A stretch of DNA of 64,000 nucleotides from Gammaproteobacteria bacterium (GCA_011051755.1 DRKN01000089.1:4917-68916), one strand, 5' to 3'. Counted from the first letter of the stretch, positions 41,762-59,196 are shown. Made by a program: numbers and translations. Notes: a model not told the origin generated them from the letters alone.

Positions 41762-42010
41762 ATGAGATGGGCTCCTCTCCCCTTTTATAAACGGCGAACG
41801 GCGTCGCAATGCGCCATGCTGGAGTCCTGCCTGATCGGCATGAAATCCTGTGCAAGCGCCCATTACTGGGCCCGGCGGCTTAAGGCACTGGGTCATGAGG
41901 TCAAACTGATTCCGGCGCAATATGTGAAAGTCTGCGTGCGAGGCAACAAAAATGACGACAACGATGCGCCGGCCATCAGTGAAGCGTTCACTCATACCAC
42001 AGAGGCGGTT
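41762..42010 (+). pseudogene. Remnant of an IS110-family (DEDD) transposase, N-terminal region only
   Basis: ...CLIGMKSCASAHYWARRLKALGHEVKLIPAQYVKVCVRGNKNDDNDAPAISEA matches the conserved IS110 N-terminal block (CLIGMEACGxAHYWAR...GHxV.L....VK...K.NKND.NDAEAI.EA). The reading frame dies about 115 codons in, inside a REP. There is no C-terminal catalytic domain. Confidence 0.55.
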
Positions 42011-42065
42011 TGTCTTAAGCACAAAGAATCTTCCCACGACCGAAGCAGAAAAACCTATTGGACAA

Positions 42066-42186
42066 GGAGCGGGCCATGCCCGCGAAAAGCAACAAAAAAC
42101 AACCTGTGAGGGCGGCTTCCACAATGTCCGGATATTCTATCTCTGCGGTGAAGGACAGGACTATCGCGGGCATGGCCCGCTCCTAC
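42066..42186. repeat. REPIN, family A doublet
   Basis: ggagcgggccatgcccgcga ... atcgcgggcatggcccgctcctac. It directly abuts the IS110 remnant. Confidence 0.8.
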
Positions 42187-42282: not shown

Positions 42283-43737
42283 TCAGAATAGGTGGGAATA
42301 CATCACCTGCCAATTGACCTGACTGTGGCTGACGGTCACCCCCTGACCACTGGTCGCCGGGACCTCGGGCGAATAGGTAAACGAGGCGTTCACGCTGGAA
42401 GATTTGTTGATGTCATAACCACCACCGAAGGTGTAGTTGTTCTCTATCGTCGCCGGGAACAGGGGATTGAGGTACTTGTCCGGCACCGGATTGGTCGAGC
42501 CGTTGTAACCCACCCTCAACACCAGCTCCCCGGTGGTCTGAAAACTGGCCCCCAGAGCGATGACCGTCTGATCCTCCCAATCCTGGAACATAACGGCATC
42601 CAGTGTTTGACCGGCAAAACCTGCCGCCAGGGGATTGGCCTGGTTCGCATCGGCCACGAAACGCATTTCGAAATTCTTCATGACGCTCGCCCAACCGATA
42701 CGCTTGACGTCGGCGGCGATCATGATCCTGTCAGTGGCCTGGAAGGCGGCGCCGATACCGTAGGTCTCCGGCCATTGGAAGTTCTTGACGCTGATTTTGC
42801 CCGACACCGGAATAGCCACGGCCGTGTAACCGGTGGAAGCACCGCCTCCCGCCAGACCAAGATCCATGTTGACGTTCATGCTGACCTCGGCGTTACCGGT
42901 GGTCATGTCACCCAGGCGGGTCTTGGCGTGGTAGGTGGCGCCCACGGTCCAGCGGCTGCCAATCCTGTAGGTAAAACCCAACTTACCGGCGAAACCATTG
43001 CCGTAGGCCTCACCCAGGAAGGCGCTGTTGTTAGAGAAATCAAAACGCGCCCAATTTACCGGCCCGGTGGGATCCAGTGCCGTGCCGACCATCCCCATCA
43101 TGCTGTCGACCATCGAGCCACTGGCCGTACCGTATTCCTGGGCGCCACCGTAGGCGGGCGCAAGCATGTCACCAAACTGCGCCCCCGACAGGGCCATCTT
43201 CAGATCCATGCTGGCCCAAATGTAGTCGAGACTGCCAGCAATATTGAAGCGGTCATTGACGCGATAACTCAGTGGAATCAGGAAACGCCCCAGCCCCACT
43301 TCGGAGCGAACCGTCTCATTGGAACCCGCCGCCAAAAAAGAGTTGGTATCATACTCGGTACCCATACCGCCTTGGGCGAAGACACCCACGCCATAGGCCA
43401 ATGCACCGCGCTTCTTCACCCAACCCACCGCCGGCATGTAAAAGGCGCTAGCGGATGAGTTCGCGTCGGGCATGCCATCCATGGCGCTTGAAATGTCGGG
43501 GCCCAGAGAACCCACCGCGACATCCAGCCGGCTGCCTTCTTCCATCATGCCCAGGGTGGCCGGATTATTCATGACTGCGGCAGTGCCGTTGTCGTAGGCA
43601 AAGGCCGCACCGCCCATGCCGCCAGCAATGGGGCCGTAGGCCTCCAGGTTCATCCCGTTCGTGGCCCAGGCCGCAAGTGGCGCCAATAAAGCGCTGATCA
43701 CCGCCATTAAAAGAATACGCTTTTTAGTGGAACCCAT
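42283..43737 (-). CDS. FadL/OmpP1/TodX-family outer-membrane hydrophobic-compound transporter (paralogue 1)
   Basis: The start MGSTKKRILLMAVISALLAPLAAWA gives a signal peptide, with a GGAGG RBS. The mature protein begins with the NGMNLEAYGPIAGGMGGAAFA block and ends with an aromatic C-terminal beta-strand ...VMYSHLF. Confidence 0.75.
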   Translation of the reverse strand: MGSTKKRILLMAVISALLAPLAAWATNGMNLEAYGPIAGGMGGAAFAYDNGTAAVMNNPATLGMMEEGSRLDVAVGSLGPDISSAMDGMPDANSSASAFYMPAVGWVKKRGALAYGVGVFAQGGMGTEYDTNSFLAAGSNETVRSEVGLGRFLIPLSYRVNDRFNIAGSLDYIWASMDLKMALSGAQFGDMLAPAYGGAQEYGTASGSMVDSMMGMVGTALDPTGPVNWARFDFSNNSAFLGEAYGNGFAGKLGFTYRIGSRWTVGATYHAKTRLGDMTTGNAEVSMNVNMDLGLAGGGASTGYTAVAIPVSGKISVKNFQWPETYGIGAAFQATDRIMIAADVKRIGWASVMKNFEMRFVADANQANPLAAGFAGQTLDAVMFQDWEDQTVIALGASFQTTGELVLRVGYNGSTNPVPDKYLNPLFPATIENNYTFGGGYDINKSSSVNASFTYSPEVPATSGQGVTVSHSQVNWQVMYSHLF

Positions 43738-44151: not shown

Positions 44152-45507
44152 ATGAAAACACCTATCCGCTTAACCCTGGCAGCGACGGCACTGACTACCT
44201 TCGGACTGGCGGCATCGGCCAGCCATGCTGGCGGTTTCGCACTGATTGAGCAGGGTGTCAAAGGACTGGGCAACGCCTACGCAGGCGCTGCAGCGAGCGC
44301 CGAGGATGCCAGCACGATTTTCTTCAATCCGGCTGGCATGACCCTGCTCGATGGCCACCAGGTTGTTGCCGGACTGCACATCATTCAGCCTTCCACCAAG
44401 TTTACCGACAACGGTTCCAAATCCCTTATTACCTCTGCCAATACCAGCGGGGGTAATGGCGGAGATGCCGCTGATCTGGCCGTGATACCCAATCTCTTTT
44501 TGGTCGCCGACATTAACGACGAGGTGAAACTCGGCCTCGGCATCAGCGTGCCCTTCGGCTTGGGCACCAACTATGACAAAGACTGGAAAGGCCGCTACCA
44601 GGCGGTCGAGACGGCCGTGGAAGTCATCAACATCAACCCGTCCCTGGCCTTCGAGGTCAATCCGCAATGGTCCGTCGGGCTGGGCGCGAACATCCAGTAT
44701 TTCAAAGCCAAGTTGACCAATGCGGTGGATTTCAGCACGGTATGTCTGGGCTCGGCCCTCGCACCCAACTGCGGTGCGTTAAACCTCAGCACTCCCCAGA
44801 CGCCAGCTACCGATGGCTTCGCCGACATCACGGGCACCAGTTGGGGCTTTGGTTATAACCTCGGCGTGCTGTTCTCCCCCACCGAGGCCACCCGCGTCGG
44901 TCTGGCTTACCGCTCTCAAGTCAAGCACTCCCTGGACGGCAAGGCGGACTTCACTCTGCCGGCAGCAGCCGGGGCGATCTCGCCAATTGCGGCACGATTT
45001 GCCGACACCGACATTACAGGAGACATCGACCTGCCGAGCACGCTGTCCCTGAGCCTGTCCCACCAGTTCAATGATACCTGGACATTACTGGCAGACATCA
45101 CCCGCACCGGCTGGAGCAGCTACGACAAACTGGTCATAGAGTTCGATAACCCCGCCAAAGACCCATCGGAAGAAGTCAACGACTGGGAAGACGTCAATCG
45201 CTACTCCATCGGCGTCAATTTTACCCCCAGCCAGACCTGGATCTACCGCGCCGGTATCGCCTATGACGAATCCCCCGTTCCCAGTGCCGAACTGCGCTCT
45301 GCACGCAGCCCGGGCAGTGACCGTACCTGGCTGGCGCTGGGCCTGGGCTACCAGATGGCAAAGAACCTCACCCTTGATTTTGGCTACGCCCACCTGTTTG
45401 CCAAAGACGCCGAGATCAATCGCGAGGGAGCGACAAAAGACCTTTTAAAAGGCTCATACGAAAGCAACGTGGATATCCTCAGCGGCCAGGTCGTCTGGGT
45501 ATTCTGA
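44152..45507 (+). CDS. FadL/OmpP1/TodX-family outer-membrane transporter (paralogue 2)
   Basis: Signal peptide MKTPIRLTLAATALTTFGLAASASHA, then GGFALIEQGVKGLGNAYAGAAA, with a C-terminus ...VVWVF. It is divergent from paralogue 1 across a 414-bp AT-rich region. Confidence 0.75.
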   Translation: MKTPIRLTLAATALTTFGLAASASHAGGFALIEQGVKGLGNAYAGAAASAEDASTIFFNPAGMTLLDGHQVVAGLHIIQPSTKFTDNGSKSLITSANTSGGNGGDAADLAVIPNLFLVADINDEVKLGLGISVPFGLGTNYDKDWKGRYQAVETAVEVININPSLAFEVNPQWSVGLGANIQYFKAKLTNAVDFSTVCLGSALAPNCGALNLSTPQTPATDGFADITGTSWGFGYNLGVLFSPTEATRVGLAYRSQVKHSLDGKADFTLPAAAGAISPIAARFADTDITGDIDLPSTLSLSLSHQFNDTWTLLADITRTGWSSYDKLVIEFDNPAKDPSEEVNDWEDVNRYSIGVNFTPSQTWIYRAGIAYDESPVPSAELRSARSPGSDRTWLALGLGYQMAKNLTLDFGYAHLFAKDAEINREGATKDLLKGSYESNVDILSGQVVWVF

Positions 45508-45739
45508 CCTCGCTCTAGTCTCGTTTTACGTTGAACTTGTGACACCGCTCTGCGGTGTCACACAGCCCGTGGCGCTCAGCGCCACCTTGGTGGATTAGCC
45601 TGGCTTTCTTACGCCACACCGCAGAGCGGTGTAGCGAGTCACATACAAGATGATACTAAGCCAACCGCGTGGGCACAAAAAACGTGCCCACCCTACATGG
45701 CTGGGTATTTTAGCCGCGCACCCGGCATGATCCCGCGCA

Positions 45740-45775
45740 AAAAAAGGCAGCCCCGAAAGCTGCCCTTTTTTATTA
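45740..45775. terminator. Bidirectional rho-independent terminator
   Basis: aaaaaaaGGCAGCcccgaaaGCTGCCcttttttt is a GC stem flanked by an A-run and a T-run. It lies between the convergent fadL paralogue 2 and the dsrE-like gene. Confidence 0.7.
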
Positions 45776-45818: not shown

Positions 45819-46286
45819 TCAAACAAACAGCGTAATATCCGACTCACCCGCAAACTCGAAAAAGGTCGCGGCACCCCCGTATTCGATACCGTCGATAAAA
45901 TCACTGCTATCGAAATCAAACAGATCCACCGTCATCTGACAGGCAACCAGCCTGACCTCGGCCTCGATGCACAGCTCACGCAGCTCTTCGAGGCTGGCCA
46001 CGCCCTTCGACTTCATCTTCTGCTTCATCATCAGGGTCATCATGGATTGCATGCCCGGCAGCGCCTGCAATAATACCGGCATGGGCATCGGCATGGGCAT
46101 GCCGGGATTACCCAGCGAGGTGACCTTGAGATCCAGTTTCTTGCGCAGCAGTTGCAGACCGTAGAAGGTGCAGAAAATTTCCACCTCATAGCCCAGCGCA
46201 GCTGCCGTAGAACCCAGAATCAAGGGCGGATAGGCCCAGTCCAGGCTGCCCTTGGTGGCAATAATCGCCAATTTTTTTCCAGACAT
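45819..46286 (-). CDS. DsrE/DsrF/TusD-family sulfur-relay protein (DsrE3-like)
   Basis: 155 aa. MSGKKLAIIATKGSLDWAYPPLILGSTAAALGYEVEIFCTFYG is the characteristic DsrE-fold N-terminus with a conserved Cys. It is 35 nt downstream of tusA. Confidence 0.65.
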   Translation of the reverse strand: MSGKKLAIIATKGSLDWAYPPLILGSTAAALGYEVEIFCTFYGLQLLRKKLDLKVTSLGNPGMPMPMPMPVLLQALPGMQSMMTLMMKQKMKSKGVASLEELRELCIEAEVRLVACQMTVDLFDFDSSDFIDGIEYGGAATFFEFAGESDITLFV

Positions 46287-46320
46287 AACGCCCTCTTCCG
46301 GTCAGACCAAGGCCATCCCG

Positions 46321-46551
46321 CTAGTGCTTTTTCATCAGAAAATGAAACTTGCCACCTTCCTCGCGGGACTCCACCAACTCATTGCCGGTCTGCTTGGCAA
46401 AGGCCTCAAAATCCTTCACCGCACCCGGATCGGTGGCGATGATATGCAGAACCTGACCTTCGCTCAGGGCCGCCAGCGCCTTTTTGGCACGCAGGATCGG
46501 CAACGGGCAATTGAGGCCGGATGCATCCAGTTCTTGATCAAAATCTGCCAT
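46321..46551 (-). CDS. tusA: TusA-family sulfurtransferase
   Basis: 76 aa. The CPLP (Cys-Pro-x-Pro) active-site motif lies in LDASGLNCPLPILRAKKAL. Confidence 0.8.
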   Translation of the reverse strand: MADFDQELDASGLNCPLPILRAKKALAALSEGQVLHIIATDPGAVKDFEAFAKQTGNELVESREEGGKFHFLMKKH

Positions 46552-46961
46552 GTCAAACTCCTTCGATGGTTATTGCAAAAAAGTGCCTATCGCCGCCAGA
46601 AGCGGCCTGTCCGGCCTTTCCCTCGCGATAATCGCCCCAAAAACCCGGCAGGCCCCCAGTGAAACCTTTATTAGAATTCAATGGTCAACTTATATTCCAA
46701 AGCCGGAAAAAATGCAACCCGAATTCTCCAGCCCTGCGAATGAACAAAATCACCGGCTGACGATCTCAAACAGGTATCGGATCATTGATACAAAATCTGC
46801 AACATATTTTGAACCGCAGGCCAGCGACAGTTTTGATTAGCCGACATTCACATCTATTTTTCCGAATAAGAAGCTCAATTCAATAAGGAATGCTCGCCAT
46901 TAAACAAAATTCACACTACACTCGACCTTCCCAAATGCGGGGATTCCGCTCACGTCCGCCG

Positions 46962-48419
46962 ATGCAACTGCGCTCCATTTTTCTGTTTTTTCTTGCCTTT
47001 ATCGCAGGATCTGTTTCCCCTTTCCATCATGCCGGGGGCAGCGAGGTCATGCCCCTGAACCTGCCCGATATCGGCGATGCCGGCGGCAATCTGATCACCC
47101 CGGAACAGGAGCGGCTGATCGGCCTGGAATTCATGCGTAGCGTACGCCGCTCGCTGAATATCCTCGGCGACCCCGCCGTCACCACCTACCTGCAAAACCT
47201 GGGGGAACGCCTGATATCACAAGTCGACGGCTATGAGCAGAGGGTCACTTTCTTTCTCGTCAACGACCCGTCGATCAATGCCTTTGCCGGCCCGGGTGGT
47301 TATATTGGCGTGCACACTGGACTGATTCTCTCCGCCCGCACCGAGGGTGAACTGGTGTCGGTACTGGCTCATGAGTTGGCTCATGCCGTACAGCGTCACC
47401 TGGTACGTTCATTCGAGGCCGGCCAACGAATGGAAATCACCACCATCGCCGCGATGATCGCCGCCATTCTGATCGGCAGCCAGAACCCACAGGTCGGGGA
47501 AGCCGTGCTGAACAGCACCATGGCCGGTTCCATCCAGCGGCAGCTCAGCTATTCACGCCTGCATGAACAGGAAGCGGATCGGGTCGGCATCACCATGATG
47601 ACCCGGGCGGGCTTCAATCCCCGCCAGATGGTCAGTTTCTTTGAAACCCTGCAATCCGCCAACCGCTACGCCGGCCTGCGCGCGCTGGAACTCCTGCAAA
47701 CCCACCCGCTCACCCTTTCCCGTATCGCCGACGCGCGCAACCGCGCAGAGCAGATAAACACCGGCAGCAAAGGAGACGACCTGACCTTTCAACTCATCAA
47801 GGCACGCGTGAAAATACTCAGTGGTGACAACATTTATCGACAACGGCAAAAGACGGCGGACGAAATACCGCTGGCCGCCACCCAGTACAGGCAGGCATTG
47901 AGCTGGCTGTCAGAAAAGCACTACGACAAGGCAAGAAATACCATACGGCAGTTGTTGGAAAAGGATCGCCAGCGCGTGCTGTACCACCTGACCGCCGCCG
48001 AAATCGAGCTGGCAGCGGATAAACCACAGGCCGCACACAGGGTGCTCGCCCCCGCCCTTGACCTGTTCCCCAACAACCTGCCATTGACAGAAATGCTGGC
48101 GGAAACCCTGCTCAAGGAGGGCAAGGCCACCGAGGCCAGCGCGCTGTTGGAACAGCAGCTTCGCCACCGGCCTGAGCGCAGGCTGTATGCTCTTCACTTC
48201 CAGGCCACCAAAACGGCTCGCCGCTACGCCGATGCCTACCAGTCACTGGCCGAGTTAAATTACATCGACGGCAATACGGTGCAAGCCATCACCTACCTAC
48301 AACAGGCTATTGAGCAAGACAGCAAAAACCAGTATGAACAATTGGCCATGCAGGCCAGACTGGCGGCCTGGAAGAAGGAAGTCCGGACAACCCGGACTGA
48401 CGGCAGTAAGAAGCATTGA
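46962..48419 (+). CDS. bepA: M48-family periplasmic metalloprotease with C-terminal TPR region (BepA/YfgC-like)
   Basis: The start MQLRSIFLFFLAFIAG gives a signal peptide. The HEXXH motif is in HELAHAVQRH, and TPR-like repeats follow. Confidence 0.75.
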   Translation: MQLRSIFLFFLAFIAGSVSPFHHAGGSEVMPLNLPDIGDAGGNLITPEQERLIGLEFMRSVRRSLNILGDPAVTTYLQNLGERLISQVDGYEQRVTFFLVNDPSINAFAGPGGYIGVHTGLILSARTEGELVSVLAHELAHAVQRHLVRSFEAGQRMEITTIAAMIAAILIGSQNPQVGEAVLNSTMAGSIQRQLSYSRLHEQEADRVGITMMTRAGFNPRQMVSFFETLQSANRYAGLRALELLQTHPLTLSRIADARNRAEQINTGSKGDDLTFQLIKARVKILSGDNIYRQRQKTADEIPLAATQYRQALSWLSEKHYDKARNTIRQLLEKDRQRVLYHLTAAEIELAADKPQAAHRVLAPALDLFPNNLPLTEMLAETLLKEGKATEASALLEQQLRHRPERRLYALHFQATKTARRYADAYQSLAELNYIDGNTVQAITYLQQAIEQDSKNQYEQLAMQARLAAWKKEVRTTRTDGSKKH

Positions 48420-48660
48420 TACAGACACTGCGGAGAGCAACCATTTATTTTCCCCCGCACCATCCCTGTATTTTTCAGCCGACCTGTTGTGCTACCCGTC
48501 AATTCTGGTATAAGAGTCCTTGGCGTTCAGGATCTCCTCAACGGATCGATATACGATATGAGCGTTTCCTACAAAGAATAAAATCGGCTCATGGCCATCA
48601 TATAAAAATTAAATACCCGGCGAAAAATAATTTATATTTCTAATTAAGGAGGAAGCAGCA

Positions 48661-49035
48661 ATGCGGAAATCCGCGAGTAGTACACTGGCAGCGGCCGGTA
48701 CCCTGGCCTTGATGCTCGGCAGTCTCGCCATTGCCCCCCAGGCCGCCCTTGCCACAGAGGCCTCGGTGGTGGAGGAAGGAAAAGCCATTGCCTTCGACCG
48801 CAAAAAAGGCAACTGTCTGGCCTGTCATAAAATGAAGGATGGCACACTGGAAGGCAATATCGGCCCAGCCCTGGTGAATATGGCCGACCGTTACCCTGAC
48901 AAAAAGAGGCTGCGTGAACAGATCTGGGATGCCACCAGGATCAACCCTTACACCATTATGCCCCCCTACGGCAAACACAAGATTTTGACCGAAGAAGAAC
49001 TCGATAAGGTTGTGGAATTTATCTACACACGTTAA
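48661..49035 (+). CDS. soxX: Sulfur-oxidation cytochrome c SoxX
   Basis: 124 aa, signal peptide, a single haem site CLACH, and an AAGGAGG RBS. It is the first gene of the soxXYZA block. Confidence 0.8.
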   Translation: MRKSASSTLAAAGTLALMLGSLAIAPQAALATEASVVEEGKAIAFDRKKGNCLACHKMKDGTLEGNIGPALVNMADRYPDKKRLREQIWDATRINPYTIMPPYGKHKILTEEELDKVVEFIYTR

Positions 49036-49084
49036 TCGACGGGTCACTTAATAAAAGTAAAAGCTAGAAGGAGATCACCCTATT

Positions 49085-49549
49085 ATGAAACGTAGAAGCT
49101 TCCTCAAGGGCACCATTGCCAGCAGCATACTGGGGGTTGCCGCCGGCGCAGGTTTACTGACCCCGCAGAGCGTACTGGCCGCATGGCCTAAAGCCGCCTT
49201 CGAGGCAAAGACTATTGACGACGGCATACAGGCGGCTCTGGGCGCCTCCGACGTCACCGAAAGTGGCGATATCAATATCAAGGCACCGGATATCGCGGAA
49301 AATGGCGCCGTTGTCCCTGTCACCATTTCCACCGGCATGTCCGGCGTGGAGTCCATCGCCATCTTTATTGAGAAAAACCCCGTGCCCCTGGCCAGCAGTT
49401 ATGACCTGGGCCCCAACACTGAAGGCTTCATTTCCTGTCGGGTCAAAATGGGCAAGACCTCTGACCTCATTGCCGTCGTCAAGTCCGAAGGCAAGCTGTA
49501 CAGCGCCAAAAAGATGATCAAAGTCACCATCGGCGGTTGCGGCGGTTAA
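49085..49549 (+). CDS. soxY: Thiosulfate-carrier protein SoxY
   Basis: Tat signal RRSFLKG. The C-terminus ends with the invariant sulfur-carrying GGCGG motif. Confidence 0.9.
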   Translation: MKRRSFLKGTIASSILGVAAGAGLLTPQSVLAAWPKAAFEAKTIDDGIQAALGASDVTESGDINIKAPDIAENGAVVPVTISTGMSGVESIAIFIEKNPVPLASSYDLGPNTEGFISCRVKMGKTSDLIAVVKSEGKLYSAKKMIKVTIGGCGG

Positions 49550-49595
49550 ACCACACCCACAACACCCGACAAGTTAACCGTTTGAGGAAAAGAGA

Positions 49596-49913
49596 ATGGC
49601 CAAGAAAAAAATCCGTATCCGCGCCAAAATGAAAGGCGAGGTGACTGAAGTCAAGGCGCTGATGAGCCACCCGATGGAAACCGGCCTGCGCAAAAACAAA
49701 AAAACGGGCGAAAAAATTCCCGCACACTTCATCCAGGATATCACCTGTGAGCACAAAGGCGCCCGGGTACTGGTCGCCCACTGGGGGGTTGCCATTTCCA
49801 AGAATCCCTACCTGGCATTCAAATTCACCGGCGCCGCCAAAGGCGACACAATCAAAGTTAGCTGGAACGATAATAAAGGTGAAAGCGCATCCGCTGAAGC
49901 CAAGATCGGATAA
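49596..49913 (+). CDS. soxZ: SoxZ
   Basis: 105 aa immediately after soxY. MAKKKIRIRAKMKGEVTEVKALMSHPMETG is a typical SoxZ N-terminus. Confidence 0.85.
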   Translation: MAKKKIRIRAKMKGEVTEVKALMSHPMETGLRKNKKTGEKIPAHFIQDITCEHKGARVLVAHWGVAISKNPYLAFKFTGAAKGDTIKVSWNDNKGESASAEAKIG

Positions 49914-49986
49914 TGCATACTGCCAACAATAACCGGCTAACGAACCACTGCCTGCAGGCAGTATCGATATGGATGGAGGAACACTC

Positions 49987-50823
49987 ATGAAAAAACTGCT
50001 TTTGATTACTGCGGTTATTGGCGCCCTGGGCGCAGTCCCGCTGATCAGCCAAGCAAGCCCGGAGGATGACCTCAAGGCATTTCAGGGATATTTTACGGAA
50101 CGTTTTCCCAATGTACCGCTGGAAGAATTTGCCAATGGTGTCTATGCCATCGACAAGGCTTCGCGTGAGCAGTGGGAAGCGATCGAGGAATTCCCTCCCT
50201 ACGAAATCGCCATTGAGGAAGGTGAGGAAATGTTCAACACCCCCTTCAAGAATGGCAAGACCTACGCCAGCTGTTTCCGCAATGGCGGCATCGGCATCAA
50301 GAGTGACTACCCCTACTACGATATCGAAAAAGGTCGCGTGGAAACCCTGGCATCGGCGATCAATGAATGTCGTACCAAGAATGGCGAAGCCCCCCTCAAA
50401 TACATGAAAGGAGAACTCGCCTCACTGGTCGCCTACATGGCCTATACCACCCGGGGTCAGATCGTCGACATCAAGATTCCGTTTGACCAGCGCGCCCGTG
50501 ACGCCTACGAAGATGGCAAGCGTTTTTTTTACGCCCGTCGCGGTCAGCTGAACATGTCCTGCGCCCATTGCCACGTCGACAATGCCGGCAACAAGATCCG
50601 TGCCGACCTACTGTCTCCGGCGCTAGGCCATCTCACACATTTTCCGGTCTACCGCTCGAAATGGGGCAGCCTGGGCACCGCCCACCGCCGCTTTTCAGGC
50701 TGCAACAAACAGGTTCGCGCATTACCTTTCAAGGCACAAAGTCCTGAATACCGCAATCTTGAGTACTTCATGACCTACATGAGTAACGGGCTTCCCTGGA
50801 ATGGCCCCGGCGCCCGCAAGTAA
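49987..50823 (+). CDS. soxA: Cytochrome c SoxA
   Basis: The start MKKLLLITAVIGALGAVPLISQA gives a signal peptide, with the haem site CAHCH. It has a single haem, as in Allochromatium-type SoxA. Confidence 0.8.
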   Translation: MKKLLLITAVIGALGAVPLISQASPEDDLKAFQGYFTERFPNVPLEEFANGVYAIDKASREQWEAIEEFPPYEIAIEEGEEMFNTPFKNGKTYASCFRNGGIGIKSDYPYYDIEKGRVETLASAINECRTKNGEAPLKYMKGELASLVAYMAYTTRGQIVDIKIPFDQRARDAYEDGKRFFYARRGQLNMSCAHCHVDNAGNKIRADLLSPALGHLTHFPVYRSKWGSLGTAHRRFSGCNKQVRALPFKAQSPEYRNLEYFMTYMSNGLPWNGPGARK

Positions 50824-50851
50824 GGTGTTTGCAGCGTAGTTTGCAATGAAA

Positions 50852-50886
50852 AAGGCCCGGCGAGATTTCTTCCCGGGCCTTTTTTC
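50852..50886 (+). terminator. Rho-independent terminator after soxA
   Basis: aaaaaGGCCCGGcgagatttcttCCCGGGCCtttttt. Confidence 0.7.
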
Positions 50887-51192
50887 ATTGACAACGCTTC
50901 CGAAGTGGACACGGCCCATTGCAAGATATCGAGAATCCCCAGGGTCACCAACGAATACATACCCCTTAAGAGGAGTGTGAGTGCTCGTATTCACATGTAA
51001 GACTTTCTGTTCGCATGGCCGCGAAGTATCGCAGTCACCCGGCCTATCACCACGCCGTAAACATGAGTGCACATACCGGCAGGCGGCTGAACACAACATA
51101 TTAGGTGGCCGGGTTAATAACCAGCCACAGGCATCCATTGACGACACAATGAAGGCCTACCAAAACCATCCGTAGTAGGAGGAACGCATCAT

Positions 51193-52914
51193 ATGAACAT
51201 CTCCCGTCGTGAATTTCTGCAAATGCTGGCCGTGGCCAGCGCCGCTGGCGTCGCACTACCCGGCCAGGCGGCCAGCAAGGGGAGCATTGTCCCTAACCAG
51301 ATGTATGAACTTCCCGCTTTTGGCAATGTTTCATTTCTGCATTTTACGGATTGCCACGCCCAATTGATGCCCATCTGGTTCCGCGAACCCAATATCAACA
51401 TCGGCGTCGGCAACATGAAAGGGAACCCTCCACATCTGGTAGGCGGGCATTTCCTCAAGCACTATGGCATCGCCTCGAATACACCGGAGGCCAATGCCTT
51501 CACCTATTTAAATTTTGTCGAGGCCTCCAAACAGTACGGCAAGGTCGGCGGTTTTGCGCACCTGGCGACATTGGTAAAACATATCCGCGCGCAACGTCCG
51601 GAATCCCTGCTACTGGATGGCGGCGATACCTGGCAGGGTTCCGCCACCGCCCTGTGGAGCAATGGACAGGACATGGTCGATGCCACCAAGCTGCTCGGTG
51701 TCGATGTCATGACCGGCCACTGGGAATTCACCTATGGTGCAGAACGTGTCAATGAAATCATCGAAAATGATCTCGCAGGGCACATGGATTTTGTAGCCCA
51801 GAATGTCATCGACAACCAGTGGGAGGAAGACGTCTTCAAGCCCTACGTCATCAAGGAGATGAACGGTATCCCGACAGCCATCATTGGCCAGGCCTTCCCC
51901 TACACACCCATCGCCAATCCGCGCTGGATGATTCCTGAATGGAGCTTCGGCATCCGCGACGACAAGATGCAGGATACCGTCGACGCCGCGCGGGAAGCCG
52001 GCGCACAGGTTGTTGTCGTTCTTTCTCACAATGGTATGGACGTCGACCTGAAAATGGCCAGCCGTGTGCGCGGTATCGACGCCATCCTGGGCGGTCATAC
52101 CCATGACGCCGTGCCCGAACCAGTCAAGGTCAACAATGCCGGTGGCGCCACGCTGGTGATCAACTCCGGCTCCAACGGCAAGTTCCTCAGCGTGTTGGAT
52201 TTTGATGTAAAGAACGGCAAGGTGCGAGACTTCCGCTACCGCCTGCTGCCCATCTTCTCCAACGTCATCGAGCCCGATGTCGAGATGAGTAAGTTCATCA
52301 GTGCCGTGCGCAAGCCGTATATCAAGAGGCTCGACGAGCAACTGGGCGTGGCGGACGAAGTACTCTATCGCCGCGGCAACTTCAACGGCACCTTCGACCA
52401 GCTGATTCTCGATGCCATGCTCGACGTGCAGGAGGCCGACATTGCCTTTTCTCCCGGCTTCCGCTGGGGCGTGAGCGTGATGCCGGGCGAACCGATCACC
52501 TTTGAGCATGTGATGACACAAACCGCCATCACCTACCCCACCGCCACACTGAACGAAGTCAGCGGCGAACAGATCAAGGTGATCCTCGAGGACGTGGCGG
52601 ACAACCTGTTCAACGAAGACCCCTACTATCAACAGGGCGGCGACATGGTGCGCGTGGGTGGGCTGAAATACAGCATCGACCCCATGGCAAAGATCGGTAA
52701 GCGCATCACCGATATGGAGCTGAATGGCAAACCGCTGGACGCCAGGAAAAACTATCGTCTGGCCGGCTGGGCCAGCATGGAGAAACGCGAAGGCACCCCT
52801 ATCTGGGACGTGGTGGCCGAGTACATCCGCGCCCAGGATACGGTGCGCATCAAGGAACTCAACATTCCCAAGATCAAGGGACTGGGCGGGAATCCGGGGT
52901 TGGCCGAGGTCTGA
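51193..52914 (+). CDS. soxB: Thiosulfohydrolase SoxB (5'-nucleotidase/metallophosphoesterase family)
   Basis: 573 aa. Tat signal SRREFLQMLAVASAAGVALPG, with metallophosphatase motifs (HFTDCH, GGDTWQG, GHWEF, GGHTHD). It has its own RBS and a 370-nt leader. Confidence 0.85.
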   Translation: MNISRREFLQMLAVASAAGVALPGQAASKGSIVPNQMYELPAFGNVSFLHFTDCHAQLMPIWFREPNINIGVGNMKGNPPHLVGGHFLKHYGIASNTPEANAFTYLNFVEASKQYGKVGGFAHLATLVKHIRAQRPESLLLDGGDTWQGSATALWSNGQDMVDATKLLGVDVMTGHWEFTYGAERVNEIIENDLAGHMDFVAQNVIDNQWEEDVFKPYVIKEMNGIPTAIIGQAFPYTPIANPRWMIPEWSFGIRDDKMQDTVDAAREAGAQVVVVLSHNGMDVDLKMASRVRGIDAILGGHTHDAVPEPVKVNNAGGATLVINSGSNGKFLSVLDFDVKNGKVRDFRYRLLPIFSNVIEPDVEMSKFISAVRKPYIKRLDEQLGVADEVLYRRGNFNGTFDQLILDAMLDVQEADIAFSPGFRWGVSVMPGEPITFEHVMTQTAITYPTATLNEVSGEQIKVILEDVADNLFNEDPYYQQGGDMVRVGGLKYSIDPMAKIGKRITDMELNGKPLDARKNYRLAGWASMEKREGTPIWDVVAEYIRAQDTVRIKELNIPKIKGLGGNPGLAEV

Positions 52915-53612: not shown

Positions 53613-54674
53613 CTAATAAATCCGCCGCATCAACCAAAACCCGGCGCCCAGCGCGAGGGCCAGGGGTAGCACCGACGTCAGCGCTGGATAGATGCCCGCC
53701 ACCAAGCCAAGGTAACCCAACATCTGGTTCAGTAAATGGAATCCGATACCCACCAGGGTACCCACCAGAATACGGTGGCCGATGCTGACCGAGCGCAACG
53801 GGCCGAACACGAAGGGGATGGCCAAAAACACCATCACCCCGGTCACCAGCGGCGCCACGACCTTGCCCCACAGGGCCTGCTCATAGACCGCCGCATCGAG
53901 GCCATTTTCGCGCAGATAGCTGACATAGTCGTACAGCCCCATAATCGACAGGGTGTTGGGCTTGACCGTCACCACGCTGAGCAGATCCGGACTCAGGCGC
54001 GTGTTCCAGGGCTCGGTCTCGATACGCTGCGCCGTGACGCCCTCGAAACTGACTTCGCTGCCGGTGATATTTTCCAGCATCCAGCGGCCATCCTGATAGA
54101 CCGCCGATTCGGCATACAGCATGCGCGTCAACTGTTGCTCGCCATCGAAGGTATAAATGGTCACGCCGCCCAGGCGTTTGCCCGGCAGAAAGTTGCGTAC
54201 ATTGACGAAACTGTCGCCGTCGCGGGCCCAGAAGCCGCTGCGTCCGCCAAGATCCAGCTTGTCGGACTTGGCCACCGAGCGCAGCGTTTGCGCCCGCTCC
54301 TCCGCCACCGGCGCAATGCCCTCACCGATCACCAGTGAGACGATGACAATCAGCAGTCCCACCTTCATTACCGACCGGACAATACACCCCAACGACACTC
54401 CGGCAGCGCGCATCACCGTCAGCTCGCTGTTACTGGCCAGCACGCCGAGGCCGATGGTGCAACCGATCAGCGCCGCCACCGGAAACAGTTGATAGGCCAG
54501 TTTGGGCACCGTAAGCAGCACATACTGAACCGCCTGCCAGGTGCCGTAATTACCCTTGCCGATGTCACCCACTTCATCCATGAAAGCGAAGAAGGTGAAC
54601 AGGGTCAGCAGCACCGTGAGCGTAATGAAGGTGCTCCAGAGCACGCTGCGGCCGATGTAGCGGTCGAGAATCTG
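53613..54674 (-). CDS. lptG: LPS export ABC permease LptG
   Basis: The start is MQILDRYIGRSVL. It has six TM helices and a periplasmic beta-jellyroll. It lies downstream of lptF and divergent from pepA, as in E. coli. Confidence 0.85.
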   Translation of the reverse strand, partial: QILDRYIGRSVLWSTFITLTVLLTLFTFFAFMDEVGDIGKGNYGTWQAVQYVLLTVPKLAYQLFPVAALIGCTIGLGVLASNSELTVMRAAGVSLGCIVRSVMKVGLLIVIVSLVIGEGIAPVAEERAQTLRSVAKSDKLDLGGRSGFWARDGDSFVNVRNFLPGKRLGGVTIYTFDGEQQLTRMLYAESAVYQDGRWMLENITGSEVSFEGVTAQRIETEPWNTRLSPDLLSVVTVKPNTLSIMGLYDYVSYLRENGLDAAVYEQALWGKVVAPLVTGVMVFLAIPFVFGPLRSVSIGHRILVGTLVGIGFHLLNQMLGYLGLVAGIYPALTSVLPLALALGAGFWLMRRIY

Positions 54675-54678
54675 CATA

Positions 54679-55836
54679 TTAATCAGACACTCTTTGCAGC
54701 CGCACCCGCCCGCGCAGGCGATCGAGCAACCAGCGCGCACCGATCTGGCGCACCATCAGCCAACCCAGCAGCGCCAGCAAAACCGCATGCACCCACCACA
54801 GCCCCAATTCCGCTGGCACCACCCCACGCTCGACCCAGTTTTTCGCCACGCCCAGGGTGTTGTAATAAATGATGAACAGCAGGATGGCCACGAACAGCTT
54901 GCCGAAACGGCCCTGACGCGGTGAGGTGCGGCTCAGCAACGCCCCCAGCAGCGCCAGCAGGAGGGTGGCGACAGGCATGGCCAGACGCCACTGCAACTCG
55001 GCGATTTCGTTCAAGTGCGACGAACCCCTCAGTCGCTCTGTGGGCAATGCCCACAGACGGCGTTCCATCTTTTTCACCTCGCCCTCATCCAGCCGCACCC
55101 CATGCTTGTCGAAACGATAGATGCGGAAATCCACCTCACCGGGCATCCCCTCGTAACGATAACCATCGACCAGCGCCAGATACAGCACCCCCGTATCGGG
55201 GTCACGGTAGCGGTAGCCGCTGCGTGCGGAAAACAGCGTCAACCTGTCCTGACGGCGATCAGACACGAACACATCCCGCAGCTCGCTGCGATCTTCCGAC
55301 AACGCCTCCACATAAAACACCCGGTTGGCGCCACCCACCTCGCTGAACCGCCCCGCCGTTACCGCCGCAAAGGCATTGGTTGCTGCGGTCTGCTCCTGCA
55401 ACCGGGTGGATGCCTCGTGCGCCCAGGGCGTGGTCCACAACGAAAACACACTGACCAGCGCCGCCAGCAACAGGCCGATCACCAGCACCGTGCGCAACAC
55501 ACGTCCCATGCCCACGCCACCAGCGGCCAGCGCGGTCATTTCGTTGTCCTTGTACAAACGCCCGAAGGCCAGCAATACTGCGACATACAGCGCAAAGGGA
55601 AACATCATGCTCAGCGCGGTCACGGTGCGCAGCAGCAGCATATCGAGCACAATGGCCGCGGAAATCCTGCCCGCCAGGGCATCGGACAGATAGAGGGCAA
55701 AAAAACGGCCGAGGAAAATCAGCAGCAGCACCAGCAACACGGCCAGCATGGTCTGCACGACCTCTTTTGCCAGGTAGCGATCAATAATCAAAAAATTCGG
55801 CCTGGAATGATTGACGGAAGACAAATCCCGGGACAC
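54679..55836 (-). CDS. lptF: LPS export ABC permease LptF (start uncertain: GTG at 55836 or TTG at 55781 giving MIIDRYLAKE)
   Basis: Its LIIDRYLAKEVVQTMLAVLLVLLLIFL aligns with the E. coli LptF N-terminus MIIIRYLVRE. There is no ATG in frame near the N-terminus. Confidence 0.8.
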   Translation of the reverse strand: MSRDLSSVNHSRPNFLIIDRYLAKEVVQTMLAVLLVLLLIFLGRFFALYLSDALAGRISAAIVLDMLLLRTVTALSMMFPFALYVAVLLAFGRLYKDNEMTALAAGGVGMGRVLRTVLVIGLLLAALVSVFSLWTTPWAHEASTRLQEQTAATNAFAAVTAGRFSEVGGANRVFYVEALSEDRSELRDVFVSDRRQDRLTLFSARSGYRYRDPDTGVLYLALVDGYRYEGMPGEVDFRIYRFDKHGVRLDEGEVKKMERRLWALPTERLRGSSHLNEIAELQWRLAMPVATLLLALLGALLSRTSPRQGRFGKLFVAILLFIIYYNTLGVAKNWVERGVVPAELGLWWVHAVLLALLGWLMVRQIGARWLLDRLRGRVRLQRVSD

Positions 55837-55940
55837 ACACTTTTGTGGCCAACACGGAAGTTCGAGTAGACTCTAACCGTATAATAAAAATCCACGTAAC
55901 AAAACCGCCCGAAATCGACAGATTCTAAACAGGAATATCT

Positions 55941-57473
55941 ATGGAATTCAGCATCAAGAGTGGCTCCCCCGAAAAACAACGCTCCGCCTGCGTGGTGGTC
56001 GGTGTCTTCGAACCGCGCCGCCTCAGCCCCGCCGCCGAGGCCCTGGACAAAGCCAGCGACAGCTTCCTCTCCACCGTACTGCGCCGTGGCGACATGGAAG
56101 GCAAGATCGGCAAGACCCTGCTGATTCACAACCCCCAGGGCGCCATGGCCGACCGCGTGCTGTTGGTTGGCTGTGGCCGCGAACGCGACATCAGCGACCA
56201 GCAATACCGTGAAATCATCGGCAGCGCCGTAACCCGACTCGACGAGACCGGCACCATGGAGGCCACCTGCTACCTCACCGAGGTCAACGTCAAGGGCCGC
56301 GACTTGCACTGGAAGGTTCGCCACACCGTGGAAAGCAGCCGTGAAATTCTCTATCACGCCGATACCCTAAAAACCAAAAAGAACGACATCCGCCGCCCAC
56401 TGCGCAAGCTGATCCTCACCGTGCCACGCCGCAGCGACCTGAGCAATGGAGAACTGGCGATGCGCGAAGGCGAAGCCATCGCCGAGGGCGTGTCACTGGC
56501 CAAGGATCTGGGCAACCTGCCCGGCAACATCTGCACCCCGACCTATCTGGCCACGCAGGCCGTCAACCAAGGCAAGAAATACAACAAACTCAACGTGGAG
56601 ATCCTGCAGCAGGCACAGCTGGAAAAACTCAGCATGGGCTCCTTCCTCTCGGTGGCCAAGGGCTCGCGCGAGACGCCACATCTTATCATCGCTGAATACA
56701 AGGGCGGCACCAGCAAACAGAAACCGGTGGTACTAGTGGGCAAGGGCATCACCTTTGATGCCGGCGGCATCTCCATCAAACCCTCGGCGGCCATGGACGA
56801 AATGAAATACGACATGTGCGGCGCCGCCACCGTATTAGGCGCCCTCACCGCCTGCTGCGAACTCGAACTGCCCATCAACCTGGTAGTGGTCATTCCCACC
56901 TGTGAAAACCTGCCCGATGGCGCCGCCAACAAACCCGGTGACATCGTTACCAGCATGTCCGGACAGACCATCGAAGTGCTCAATACCGATGCCGAAGGCC
57001 GTCTCATCCTCTGCGACGCCCTGACCTACGTCGAACGCTTCTCACCCGATGCCGTGATCGACGTCGCCACCCTCACCGGCGCCTGTGTGATCGCCCTCGG
57101 CCGCCATGCCAGCGGCGTAATGGGCAATCATCATCCACTGGTGCACGACCTGCTGAACGCCGGCAAGAGCAGTGGTGACCGCGCCTGGGAGCTGCCGCTG
57201 TGGGATGAATACCAGGATCAGCTAAAGAGTAACTTTGCCGATATCCCCAACATCGGCGGCCGTGAAGGCGGCACCATCACCGCCGCCTGCTTCCTCTCGC
57301 GTTTCACCAAAAAGTACCACTGGGCGCACATGGACATCGCCGGCACCGCCTGGGTTTCCGGTGAAAAGAAAGGCGCCACCGGCCGTCCCGTACCGTTGCT
57401 CACCCAATACCTCATCGACCGCTGCGACAACAAGAGCAAGGCCAAAAGCAAGAGCGTAAAAGGCAAGAAATAA
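55941..57473 (+). CDS. pepA: Leucyl aminopeptidase (M17)
   Basis: 510 aa, with the NTDAEGRL signature and the [14 protein letters not shown] block. Confidence 0.9.
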
Positions 57474-59047: not shown

Positions 59048-59130
59048 GCAAACACCTGAAACACAAAAGGCCGGCTGGGCTTCCCCGGCTGGCCTTTTAA
59101 ATGCCTCTAAACGACTTTCAGCTTCCTGAC

Positions 59131-59196
59131 GTAGAGTGGGCACCGCCCACCAGTTACGTTCTATCCAAGCAGCGATAGTGGGCAGCGCCGCCCTAC
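59131..59196. repeat. REPIN, family B doublet
   Basis: gtagagtgggcaccgcccacc ... tagtgggcagcgccgccctac. Confidence 0.75.

Follow-up and report, generated by a model that had tools for sequence, protein, structure and literature searches.

Among the closest described systems, that of A. vinosum is spread over rhd_2599-tusA-dsrE2 (Alvin_2599-2601), soxYZ (Alvin_2111/2112), and soxBXA (Alvin_2167-2169) (PMC4175335; PMC11094781; PMC11267869). The rhd-tusA-dsrE2 genes are an established relay module of rDsr and sHdr organisms (PMC11094781; PMC4175335). DsrE2A, for which Alvin_2601 is the prototype, is defined by two strictly conserved cysteines (PMC4175335); its role "remains unclear," and the protein is biochemically undefined (PMC11094781). 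The pair with biochemically demonstrated thiosulfonate transfer is DsrE3A-TusA (PMC4175335; PMC11094781), and archaeal DsrE2B was unreactive toward every sulfur compound tested (PMC4175335). On pyrite, A. vinosum soxYZ rose (+2.9 and +2.4 log2), whereas tusA and dsrE2 fell (−2.6 and −2.1 log2) (PMC11267869).

Related modules are combined differently elsewhere. The shdr-lbpA-sox region of the alphaproteobacterium Hyphomicrobium denitrificans holds soxXA, soxYZ, and soxB with soxSRT, tusA, dsrE3C, rhd442, shdr, and lbpA (PMC11582611; PMC11094781). Type I shdr clusters of Thioalkalivibrio, Thiorhodospira sibirica, and Acidithiobacillus include rhd-tusA-dsrE2. In P. aeruginosa, the locus tag PA1005 belongs to a putative BepA orthologue (PMC11445079), and PA1006 is a TusA-like protein needed for molybdenum homeostasis (PMC3568122).

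We analyzed a 64-kb stretch of DNA (here, the window) from an uncultured hydrothermal-vent gammaproteobacterium. It holds an ordinary thiosulfate-oxidation gene set (soxXYZA and soxB), adjoined by genes for two cytoplasmic sulfur carriers, tusA and dsrE2. As in A. vinosum, a Sox set with no SoxCD, here over the inspected part of the contig, goes with a relay of TusA and DsrE2A. In both, two cysteines of DsrE2A are conserved, an M48 peptidase gene lies beside sox genes (Alvin_2110 in A. vinosum, adjoining soxYZ by its locus tag; PMC11267869), and soxB is, here probably, transcribed apart from soxYZ. However, the A. vinosum genes occupy three separate loci by locus tags, whereas the window has one cluster of soxXYZA and soxB, with tusA-dsrE2 ~2 kb away across the M48 gene; the window lacks rhd and dsr genes, and no soxK-like gene was seen.

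The H. denitrificans region likewise clusters the genes of a truncated periplasmic Sox system with those of cytoplasmic sulfur transferases including TusA (PMC11582611; PMC11094781), and the two systems are alike in the concept that SoxY-bound sulfane is handed to a cytoplasmic oxidation system. That cluster, however, encodes DsrE3C and Rhd442 in place of DsrE2, includes SoxT importers and SoxR/sHdrR repressors, and, as the papers describe the region, has no BepA gene between the modules; the window has neither shdr nor lbpA, and none of the genes beside its cluster is for a transporter or a regulator. Type I shdr clusters share the tusA-dsrE2 order and the DsrE2 subgroup with the window, in which, by contrast, tusA-dsrE2 stops at a terminator followed by a fadL-like gene, and shdr and lbpA are absent from the 64 kb. 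P. aeruginosa shares a BepA-type M48/TPR gene beside a tusA-type gene, judged by consecutive locus tags, and a second gene (PA1007) after PA1006 in the same operon. It has no sox genes, PA1007 encodes a transmembrane protein rather than DsrE2, and the TusA there functions in molybdenum cofactor and nitrate metabolism.

The sox genes and their transcription units

ORF calls and profile searches located all eight genes of the locus where they had previously been placed, and SoxX, SoxY, SoxZ, SoxA, SoxB, and DsrE2 each scored above the NCBIfam equivalog cut-off. The monohaem cytochrome c gene soxX (48661..49035, plus strand; TIGR04485, 95.5 bits; cut-off, 61) encodes a single CxxCH, located by motif search at residue 52. 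SoxY (49085..49549, plus strand; TIGR04488 SoxY_true_GGCGG, 168.6 bits; cut-off, 125) has a Tat signal and the tail VTIGGCGG, the C-terminal carrier arm with Cys152. It is followed by soxZ (49596..49913, plus strand; TIGR04490, 141.7 bits; cut-off, 76) and soxA (49987..50823, plus strand; TIGR04484, 242.9 bits; cut-off, 110). The soxA gene call is 278 amino acids (aa); the ORF opens at 49969 (284 aa), with a single CxxCH at residues 198 to 202 of that ORF. The thiosulfohydrolase gene soxB (51193..52914, plus strand; TIGR04486, 882.5 bits; cut-off, 550) also encodes a Tat signal. Every feature by which a truncated Sox system is recognized in SoxYZ (GGCGG, Tat), SoxXA (CxxCH), and SoxB was thus present.

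A prior reading made from the sequence alone (the sequence-only reading) had described a truncated Sox system with no soxCD in the window. A profile scan of all large ORFs in the 64 kb bore this out, and the source-contig gene table listed no soxCD just outside, up to 8.7 kb past the window. The search around the cluster covered 45 kb upstream and ~20 kb downstream (at least 65 kb). Pfam-annotated gene tables likewise showed no soxCD beside the soxXYZAB-type clusters of five relatives (L085, L086, L088-L090). The term "truncated" holds for this contig, of which ~73 of 97 kb were inspected, rather than genome-wide.

Gaps of only 46 to 73 nt separate the genes within soxXYZA, and an intrinsic terminator, a hairpin with a U-run, follows soxA (50844..50891, plus strand; −35.1 kcal/mol, z = −5.61), in keeping with the tight, strongly terminated block described previously. 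None of 200 shuffled sequences folded as well. A simple terminator scan overlooked this hairpin because of its 12-nt loop; its sequence is kept in the closest genome (L003; blastn). The soxA-soxB gap is 369 nt, with an AGGAGG ribosome binding site (RBS) ~9 nt 5′ of the soxB ATG, at the 3′ end of the spacer (50892..51192, plus strand). About 265 nt of this spacer are missing from the closest genome in blastn comparison, and the gap measures 131 nt there and 70 to 835 nt in other genomes; the spacer is lineage specific. We found neither a significant RNA fold (z = −0.03) nor a credible Rfam match in it. Of the earlier proposal of a 370-nt soxB leader with its own RBS and separate regulation, the gap, the RBS, and the terminator stood, whereas the spacer itself proved unconserved and unstructured; only the soxA terminator argues for separate soxB transcription.

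A divergent promoter region, together with the terminators 3′ of soxA and 3′ of dsrE2, probably divides the locus into three separate transcription units: soxXYZA, soxB, and tusA-dsrE2. A motif search across the regions upstream of tusA, soxX, and soxB found no shared operator motif. The genes around the cluster (bamD, nadE, sucCD, lptFG, pepA, holC, and valS) are housekeeping genes.

The TusA-DsrE2A pair and the adjoining protease

The DsrE-family protein noted previously is specifically of the DsrE2A type: dsrE2 (45819..46286, minus strand) encodes a 155-aa sulfur carrier that matches the NCBIfam equivalog NF047629 (293 bits; cut-off, 210) over positions 1 to 159 of the 159-position profile (Pfam DrsE_2, 1.2e-53). 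Both cysteines of the DsrE2A definition are present: Cys116, which aligns with the active-site cysteine of 2QS7, 3PNX, and 3MC3, was present in all 81 sequences compared, and Cys106 in 79 of them. Directly 5′, across a gap of 34 nt, tusA (46321..46551, minus strand; Pfam TusA PF01206, 87.2 bits) encodes a 76-aa protein whose Cys15, in a CPLP motif, aligns with Cys19 of E. coli TusA and is present in all 66 homologues. Its score against NF001423, the E. coli-type TusA equivalog, is 59.6 bits (cut-off, 78), which places it by profile as a TusA-family member rather than an E. coli-type equivalog.

The active-site cysteines are therefore kept in both carriers, as their proposed role as a sulfur-trafficking pair requires; however, transfer is demonstrated for DsrE3A with TusA, and the rhodanese gene is missing here. 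A tblastn search with a rhodanese from L082 found no rhodanese homologue in the whole window, and the divergent region 5′ of tusA (46552..46934), where most relatives have rhd, holds no such gene. The rhd-tusA-dsrE2 synteny, with a gene for a rhodanese of ~100 aa in front, is thus not seen in the window. The 64 kb likewise hold no rDsr, sHdr, shdr/lbpA, or sulfur-globule genes and no sulfur importer gene. Beyond dsrE2, a terminator scan and the sequence (A-run, GGCAGC...GCTGCC, T-run) revealed a bidirectional terminator-like hairpin (45740..45775), and then a convergent gene for an outer-membrane protein of the FadL/Toluene_X family (44152..45507, plus strand; Pfam Toluene_X, 3.5e-111). A second gene of this family (42283..43737, minus strand; Pfam Toluene_X, 3.3e-28; gene call, 484 aa) was counted as a neighbor only.

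The gene that diverges from tusA is not soxX but the M48 gene, a point on which the sequence-only reading, correct as to the divergence, needed revision. This gene (46935..48419, plus strand; ORF opening at 46890) encodes a 494-aa BepA-type periplasmic zinc metalloprotease whose C-terminal part is a TPR domain (Pfam Peptidase_M48 and TPR), so that the BepA-like protease reported beside the cluster was upheld by its architecture and its alignment to BepA. Query residues 57 to 492 align with the E. coli BepA structures 6SAR/6AIT (7.6e-63; full length), and HExxH (HELAH), the Glu ligand (EQEAD), and the THPL histidine are kept; the score against the NCBIfam BepA equivalog NF052400 (374.6 bits) is under the cut-off of 570. 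In a neighbor-joining tree, the L087 homologue, which is not sox linked and is 45% identical to the window protein, nests among sox-linked M48 proteins, some of which are only 29 to 35% identical to the window protein. Given this nesting, the full-length alignment, the consecutive numbering of PA1005 and PA1006, and the housekeeping surroundings, the most likely identity of the M48/TPR gene that separates tusA from soxX is the housekeeping BepA of this organism. That assignment does not account for why the gene lies almost always directly 5′ of soxX or soxY, nor for its joint rise with soxYZ in A. vinosum.

Recurrence of the layout in relatives

Conservation of the layout was assessed from three independent anchors, DsrE2, M48, and SoxB. 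The order sox, M48/TPR protease, and, divergently, (rhd)-tusA-dsrE2 recurs in many related sulfur oxidizers. Of 80 DsrE2-anchored genome loci, 64 had tusA adjacent and 45 had rhd. Of the 70 loci that extend 2 kb or more upstream, 29 showed a divergent M48 gene; 16 of these M48-bearing loci reach 4 kb or more upstream, and in 14 of them soxYZ followed behind the M48 gene. Five of six M48-anchored contigs were sox linked. Of the nine SoxB-anchored metagenome loci of the soxXYZAB type that extend 2 kb or more upstream, eight had the M48 gene directly 5′ of soxX and codirectional with it.

One relative (L086) has the same gene order as the window, lptFG and pepA included, and another (L089) has the backbone, with tusA divergent from bepA-soxXYZAB, without dsrE2 or fadL. 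Three (L007, L028, and L041) carry bepA-soxX divergent from rhd-tusA-dsrE2-shdrC1B1AHC2B2-lbpA-dsrE3-lbpA-lipS1-slplAB, running, in likeness to type I shdr clusters, from tusA-dsrE2 directly into the shdr genes; in three more (L085, L090, and L092), dsrE3-lbpA-lipS lies 3′ of dsrE2. A FadL-like gene is directly 3′ of dsrE2 in 25/56 DsrE2 loci and is convergent in 19. In two loci (L075 and L122), tusA-dsrE2 abuts sox genes codirectionally, with no bepA between. We take the layout in which bepA-soxXYZA(B) diverges from (rhd)-tusA-dsrE2 to be old in Gammaproteobacteria, with gains and losses of rhd, dsrE2, shdr-lbpA, and fadL genes around it in different lineages. The physical linkage of Sox and TusA/DsrE modules, remarked on previously, is therefore real and recurs in many genomes, yet it is built from known modules.

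Proposed sulfur route and competing explanations

We favor, with a probability of roughly 0.7, a joint reading of the locus as a Sox set without nearby SoxCD, a TusA-DsrE2 relay, and a housekeeping BepA, held together in an old arrangement. For the periplasmic steps, based on equivalog-level family membership, SoxXA would couple thiosulfate to SoxY at Cys152 of its GGCGG arm, with SoxYZ as the carrier, and SoxB would release the sulfone as sulfate by hydrolysis. With no SoxCD nearby, the sulfane sulfur would stay on SoxY and have to be off-loaded. For the cytoplasmic steps we drew on published work on A. vinosum and sHdr and on the gene neighbors of relatives: TusA (Cys15) and DsrE2A (Cys106/Cys116), as part of the known (rhd-)tusA-dsrE2 relay module, may supply an rDsr or sHdr-LbpA oxidation system, encoded outside the window, with persulfide sulfur. 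Because the 64 kb hold no rDsr/sHdr or globule genes and no importer, this downstream half of the pathway is modeled from relatives only, and no candidate transporter for sulfur across the inner membrane is encoded here. Counted against this joint reading are the undefined biochemistry of DsrE2A (PMC11094781) and the unreactive DsrE2B (PMC4175335), the missing rhd, which is the first relay member in A. vinosum, the lack of a common operator motif, the opposite responses of soxYZ and tusA-dsrE2 in A. vinosum on pyrite, and the score of the M48 protein below the BepA cut-off.

Alternatively, the adjacency could be inherited gene order without functional coupling, in which tusA is the general sulfur hub of the cell (tRNA thiolation and molybdenum cofactor), bepA has a housekeeping role, and sox came to lie beside an old bepA-tusA pair. 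The pairing of PA1005 with PA1006 in P. aeruginosa, no lithotrophic sulfur oxidizer, is consistent with this, as are the relative that retains tusA divergent from bepA-soxXYZAB without dsrE2 (L089), the surrounding housekeeping genes, and the separate transcription units lacking a shared operator motif. The opposite responses of soxYZ and tusA-dsrE2 in A. vinosum on pyrite point the same way and mean that coinduction of the two modules is not a given. Inherited order alone, however, does not lead one to expect that rhd, dsrE2, dsrE3, shdr, lbpA, and lipS have repeatedly accreted at exactly this sox-adjoining tusA, or that tusA-dsrE2 is joined to sox in two other layouts that lack bepA (L075 and L122). 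Moreover, the window DsrE2 is an equivalog match with both cysteines, from a subgroup that the literature connects, by genetics or by function, with Dsr or Hdr systems. We regard this explanation as unlikely, although it is the strongest of the alternatives.

Somewhat less likely still is that the M48/TPR protein, beyond housekeeping, assists the gammaproteobacterial soxXYZA(B)/soxYZ system as an accessory factor, which might keep the SoxYZ carrier or further Sox proteins of the periplasm under quality control or help to assemble the neighboring FadL-type outer-membrane channels. Its codirectional placement directly 5′ of soxX or soxY (8/9, 14/16, and 5/6 of the SoxB-, DsrE2-, and M48-anchored loci) spans several orders of Gammaproteobacteria, narrows to a gap of only 31 nt before soxX in L089, and persists where no adjoining tusA was found (L118, L133, L135, and L163). 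On pyrite, Alvin_2110, soxY, and soxZ rose together (+2.50, +2.92, and +2.40 log2) (PMC11267869), and the subequivalog BepA score would also fit. We found no discussion of the M48-sox linkage in the literature searched. The full BepA architecture and active-site residues argue otherwise, as do the nesting of the non-sox L087 protein among sox-linked members that diverge to 29 to 35% identity and the consecutive bepA and tusA locus tags in Pseudomonas without this sox layout; there is also no biochemical hint of a Sox substrate. If the M48 protein were such a factor, it might turn over dead-end SoxY conjugates or assemble an outer-membrane channel for sulfur compounds, and the FadL-type gene recurring after dsrE2 may share in that role.

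Least probable is a complete Sox system, with soxCD elsewhere in the genome, thiosulfate fully oxidized in the periplasm, and TusA-DsrE2 serving another substrate: the inspected stretch is ~73 kb of a 97-kb contig, and out-of-cluster soxCD as well as complete Sox alongside rDsr are described categories (PMC13500833), but no soxCD lies in the 45 kb upstream or ~20 kb downstream or beside the soxXYZAB-type clusters of the five relatives, and both the kind of cluster and the DsrE2A encoded with it fit rDsr or sHdr organisms.

Gene content and boundaries of the sox cluster

The window derives from a 97-kb contig of a hydrothermal-vent metagenome. Profile searches confirmed that the genes proposed in the sequence-only reading are real open reading frames (ORFs) of unambiguous families. 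The reverse strand carries tusA (46321-46551; Pfam TusA, 87 bits) and dsrE2 (45819-46286; NCBIfam equivalog "sulfur carrier protein DsrE2," 293 bits versus a cutoff of 210). On the forward strand, Pfam and NCBIfam profiles identified a gene whose M48 peptidase product carries TPR repeats at its C terminus (46890/46935-48419), followed by soxX (48661-49035), soxY (49085-49549; GGCGG at the C-terminal end of the protein), soxZ (49596-49913), soxA (49969/49987-50823), and soxB (51193-52914). All five Sox proteins (X, Y, Z, A, and B) scored above their NCBIfam equivalog cutoffs, and the intergenic gaps within soxXYZA are 46 to 73 nt.

The earlier claim that the window lacks soxCD was borne out by a scan of all its large ORFs, and the contig gene table, followed to 8.7 kb past the window end, lists valS and antiporter genes in that stretch and no soxCD immediately outside the window. 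Together, these two sources show no soxCD within 45 kb upstream or approximately 20 kb downstream of the sox genes. All other large ORFs in the window have housekeeping, regulatory, or no assigned functions (e.g., fliF, sigma-54 regulators, pyk, ispD, eno, a kdsA-like gene, pyrG, bamD, nadE, sucCD, lptFG, pepA, and holC). Hidden copies of rhd (the small rhodanese gene that usually accompanies tusA-dsrE2), soxK, soxCD, shdr, or lbpA were sought by tblastn and Pfam scans, which were negative; rhodanese, shdr, lbpA, and dsr genes were not found within the 64-kb window.

A hairpin followed by a U-run was detected after soxA (approximately 50844-50891; −35 kcal/mol, z = −5.6), in agreement with the strong terminator proposed there; a simple terminator scan overlooked it because of its 12-nt loop. 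soxB starts 369 nt past soxA, with AGGAGG approximately 9 nt before the ATG. Given the terminator, separate transcription of soxB appears plausible. The sequence-only reading had gone further and assigned soxB a leader with its own ribosome binding site (RBS) and separate regulation; the RBS and terminator stand, but nothing we found points to a regulatory leader. Across other relatives the soxA-soxB gap ranges from 70 to 835 nt with no sequence or ORF common to different lineages, and only the spacers of one closely related pair of loci (L053/L066) align. The closest genome (L003; 95 to 96% protein identity) has a gap of 131 nt; it shares the terminator and the RBS region with the window and lacks approximately 265 nt that lie between them in the window (50885-51148). 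This extra stretch folds no better than shuffled sequence (z = −0.03), contains no conserved ORF, and is not repeated within the window; Rfam assigned no RNA family to the soxB spacer, the sole match being noise (E = 0.11). On these grounds we rejected the idea that a regulatory RNA or leader precedes soxB. We likewise rejected a common operator for tusA, soxX, and soxB, whose upstream regions share no word of at least 10 nt and no palindrome. A sigma-70 scan returned 0 sites in the region.

DsrE2 contains cysteines at positions 39, 106, and 116. Cys116 is kept in 81 of 81 homologues and corresponds in alignment to the active-site cysteine in the DsrE2B/DsrE3A structures 2QS7, 3PNX, and 3MC3; Cys106 is kept in 79 of the 81. 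Judged by its alignment, the protein matches the published definition of the DsrE2A subgroup (prototype Alvin_2601 of Allochromatium vinosum), which specifies "two strictly conserved cysteines" (PMC4175335). TusA Cys15, within a CPLP motif, aligns with Cys19 of Escherichia coli TusA and is kept in all 66 homologues. A DsrE-like protein devoid of the active-site cysteine had been named as evidence against a TusA/DsrE trafficking pair; because the active-site cysteines of both DsrE2 and TusA are conserved, this objection falls away. Thiosulfonate transfer, however, has been demonstrated for a DsrE3A-TusA pair; no compound tested with archaeal DsrE2B gave a reaction (PMC4175335), and what DsrE2A does "remains unclear" (PMC11094781).

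Residues 58 to 92 of DsrE2A form a conserved Met/Pro-rich insert (LGNPGMPMPMPMP...PGM..MM..MMK.KM) with a median of 10 Met per approximately 39 residues, in which G59, N60, P61, P70, P77, G78, and M87 are invariant across 81 sequences. The insert is largely missing in archaeal DsrE2B (2QS7). It forms no clear transmembrane helix, since its hydropathy is too low (maximum Kyte-Doolittle 19-residue mean, 1.26). We therefore rejected DsrE2 as a membrane protein, in agreement with doubt already voiced (PMC11094781).

Conservation of the layout across related loci

The linkage of Sox to TusA-DsrE recurred in three independent surveys of homologous loci, anchored on DsrE2, on the M48 protein, and on SoxB. 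Among 80 DsrE2-anchored genome loci whose neighbors were scored by tblastn, dsrE2 was immediately preceded by tusA in 64 and rhd stood before tusA in 45. Upstream sequence reached at least 2 kb at 70 loci, and 29 of these had a BepA-like (M48) gene divergently beside (rhd-)tusA. At 16 of the M48-bearing loci it reached at least 4 kb; 14 of the 16 had soxYZ behind the M48 gene, 11 of these 14 also having soxX and soxA. The taxa represented included Thiohalomonadales, Thiohalophilus, Granulosicoccaceae, Ectothiorhodospiraceae, and several unclassified metagenome-assembled genomes (MAGs), together with Methylophaga, which had soxYZ only.

Of six M48 homologues on long contigs (45 to 48% identity to the window protein), five were sox linked. 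One contig (L086) reproduces the gene order of the window, including fadL, lptFG, and pepA. Another (L089), which lacks dsrE2 and fadL, reads rluD-bamD-nadE-sucDC-tusA <> bepA-soxXYZAB-lptGF <> pepA ("<>" denoting divergent genes); at 7001-8867 of L089, bepA lies directly upstream of soxX, just 31 nt away. The sixth homologue (L087) is surrounded by unrelated housekeeping genes. Finally, among 80 SoxB-anchored metagenome loci, an M48 gene was directly upstream and codirectional in 8 of the 9 clusters of soxXYZAB order for which 2 kb or more before soxX was available, and tusA was divergent from it in 4 of these 8. Clusters of soxYZA(X)B order had no M48 gene immediately upstream; in one of them (L109), an M48 gene lies approximately 2.7 kb upstream on the opposite strand.

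Taken together, these surveys establish a widely conserved layout, sox <- bepA <> (rhd)-tusA-dsrE2(-shdr-lbpA), where "<-" marks leftward transcription, often with a fadL-like gene at its end. We found no published description of this layout in the literature searched, and we regard it as a modest addition. Other arrangements were also observed. At one locus (L122 5254-11700), tusA-dsrE2 is codirectional with and directly before soxY of a soxYZAXB-type cluster, with no bepA between; at another (L075 2661-5663), soxXYZA-tusA-dsrE2 lie on one strand without an M48 gene. On its other side, at 53613-57473 and continuing past the window (L083), the sox cluster adjoins a widely conserved housekeeping block, lptG-lptF <> pepA-holC ... 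valS. The soxB-lptGF junction is common to L003, L062, L085, L086, and L088 to L090, with pepA past it in L003, L086, and L089.

Contiguity with cytoplasmic sulfur oxidation genes

In some relatives, the locus continues past dsrE2 into shdr- or lbpA-type genes, so the sox-facing tusA-dsrE2 locus is there the entry to the sHdr-LbpA pathway. In a gammaproteobacterial MAG locus (L007), dsrE2 is followed by genes for HdrC-like, HdrB-like (CCG domain), and HdrA-like (FAD) proteins, a gene of no family, and genes for HdrC-like, HdrB-like, and GcvH-like LbpA proteins, which is the canonical order shdrC1B1AHC2B2-lbpA. The complete island (L007 3369-12400; also L028 and L041) reads soxX <- bepA <> rhd-tusA-dsrE2-shdrC1B1AHC2B2-lbpA-dsrE3-lbpA-lipS1-slplAB and thus places periplasmic Sox genes beside the whole cytoplasmic sHdr-LbpA pathway. 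Its lbpA-dsrE3-lbpA-lipS1-slplAB part is common to L028, L041, L070, and L079. In three further loci (L085, L090, and L092), dsrE3-lbpA-lipS1-slplAB-lipT directly follows dsrE2, with lipS2 also present in L085 and L090. In Sedimenticola and Chromatiaceae, the locus appears as an rhd-tusA-dsrE2 module, which has been tied to the other cytoplasmic system, rDsr, in A. vinosum (PMC11094781). The window is a reduced version, in which tusA-dsrE2 stops at a bidirectional terminator (45740-45775).

Gene identities, carrier and catalytic residues, the signals separating the units, gene order, and the contiguity with shdr-lbpA in relatives are direct observations. From what is known of these families, SoxXA would load thiosulfate onto SoxY Cys152 and SoxB would release sulfate; without SoxCD, the remaining sulfane would have to leave SoxY. 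In the cytoplasm, persulfide sulfur on TusA would feed rDsr or sHdr, DsrE2A contributing in a way yet to be defined. The route by which SoxY-bound sulfane reaches the cytoplasmic system in SoxCD-less bacteria has been called unknown (PMC11582611). The cluster is an example of an already known kind of system, ordinary in its annotation, and contributes no new component to the sulfane-transfer problem. The original observation is confirmed, and its interpretation is partly supported.

The BepA-type and FadL-like genes

Alignment of the M48 protein with E. coli BepA is full length (7.6e-63), with HExxH, the Glu ligand, and the histidine of THPL all conserved; its NCBIfam BepA score (374.6 bits) is under the equivalog cutoff of 570. 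The one reading of the locus with real novelty is that this protein is a partner of Sox rather than a bystander. The adjacency to soxX or soxY does persist, the gene being directly upstream and codirectional in almost every soxXYZAB-type cluster. Judged by consecutive locus tags, Alvin_2110 ("Peptidase M48") of A. vinosum neighbors soxY and soxZ (Alvin_2111 and Alvin_2112), and on pyrite the three were upregulated together (+2.50, +2.92, and +2.40 log2, respectively), with tusA at −2.63 and dsrE2 at −2.09 log2 in the same experiment (PMC11267869). Beyond this one table row for Alvin_2110, the literature searched contained nothing on an M48/BepA-Sox link. A neighbor-joining tree with E. coli BepA as the root does not support a sox-specific paralogue, because the L087 protein, which is not sox linked, branches within the sox-linked ones; that protein is 45% identical to the window protein, and some sox-linked homologues are just 29 to 35% identical. 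The gene neighborhood is rich in envelope housekeeping genes. In Pseudomonas aeruginosa, moreover, the putative BepA orthologue PA1005 (PMC11445079) is next to PA1006, which encodes a TusA-like carrier of persulfide and shares an operon with PA1007 (PMC3568122). These lines of evidence favor an ordinary BepA, and we consider a dedicated Sox partner unlikely.

Two genes for FadL/Toluene_X-family outer membrane proteins lie beside dsrE2 (42283-43737, reverse strand; 44152-45507, forward strand). Of 56 DsrE2 loci, 25 have a FadL-like gene immediately after dsrE2, and in 19 the two genes converge. Loci with such a neighbor include L011, L013, L014, L024, L029, L037, L053, L062, L066, L085, and L086; in L085 the gene follows the lbpA-lipS block, not dsrE2. 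Sedimenticola and Chromatiaceae loci without bepA or sox neighbors also have a FadL-like gene after dsrE2. A FadL-type protein might serve as a channel for hydrophobic sulfur species; no report of FadL with tusA-dsrE2 was found in the literature searched. Across many marine and freshwater Gammaproteobacteria, then, Sox genes and a tusA-dsrE2 relay flank one BepA-type gene, the same locus runs on into shdr-lbpA in some, and M48 and FadL-type genes accompany the cluster. The latter two could be targeted genetically at little cost in relatives that can be cultivated (Thiohalomonas, Allochromatium, and Sedimenticola).

The spacer between the convergent second fadL-like gene and dsrE2 (45538-45775) is densely hairpinned. 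It contains the 17-nt palindrome ACACCGC-NNN-GCGGTGT twice (45542 and 45616; 0.01 expected by chance), with complementary loops and no other copy elsewhere in the window. An IS110-family transposase fragment (41849-42109, forward strand; profile positions 57 to 119 of 343) between sucC and the first fadL-like gene marks the point at which the housekeeping backbone gives way to the fadL/dsrE2 block, which is missing from L089. Elsewhere, ARAGORN called a 93-nt tRNA-Ile(GAT) (8053-8145, reverse strand) within an ORF that weakly resembles spermidine synthase. This call is probably spurious, because Rfam detected no tRNA in the window at the gathering threshold. Patches of low GC content (20001-22000, 28001-30000, and 58001-62000; 0.41 to 0.49 versus approximately 0.57 overall) hold ORFs without a family match, a nonspecific endonuclease gene, and small genes without assigned function, and may be horizontally acquired islets.
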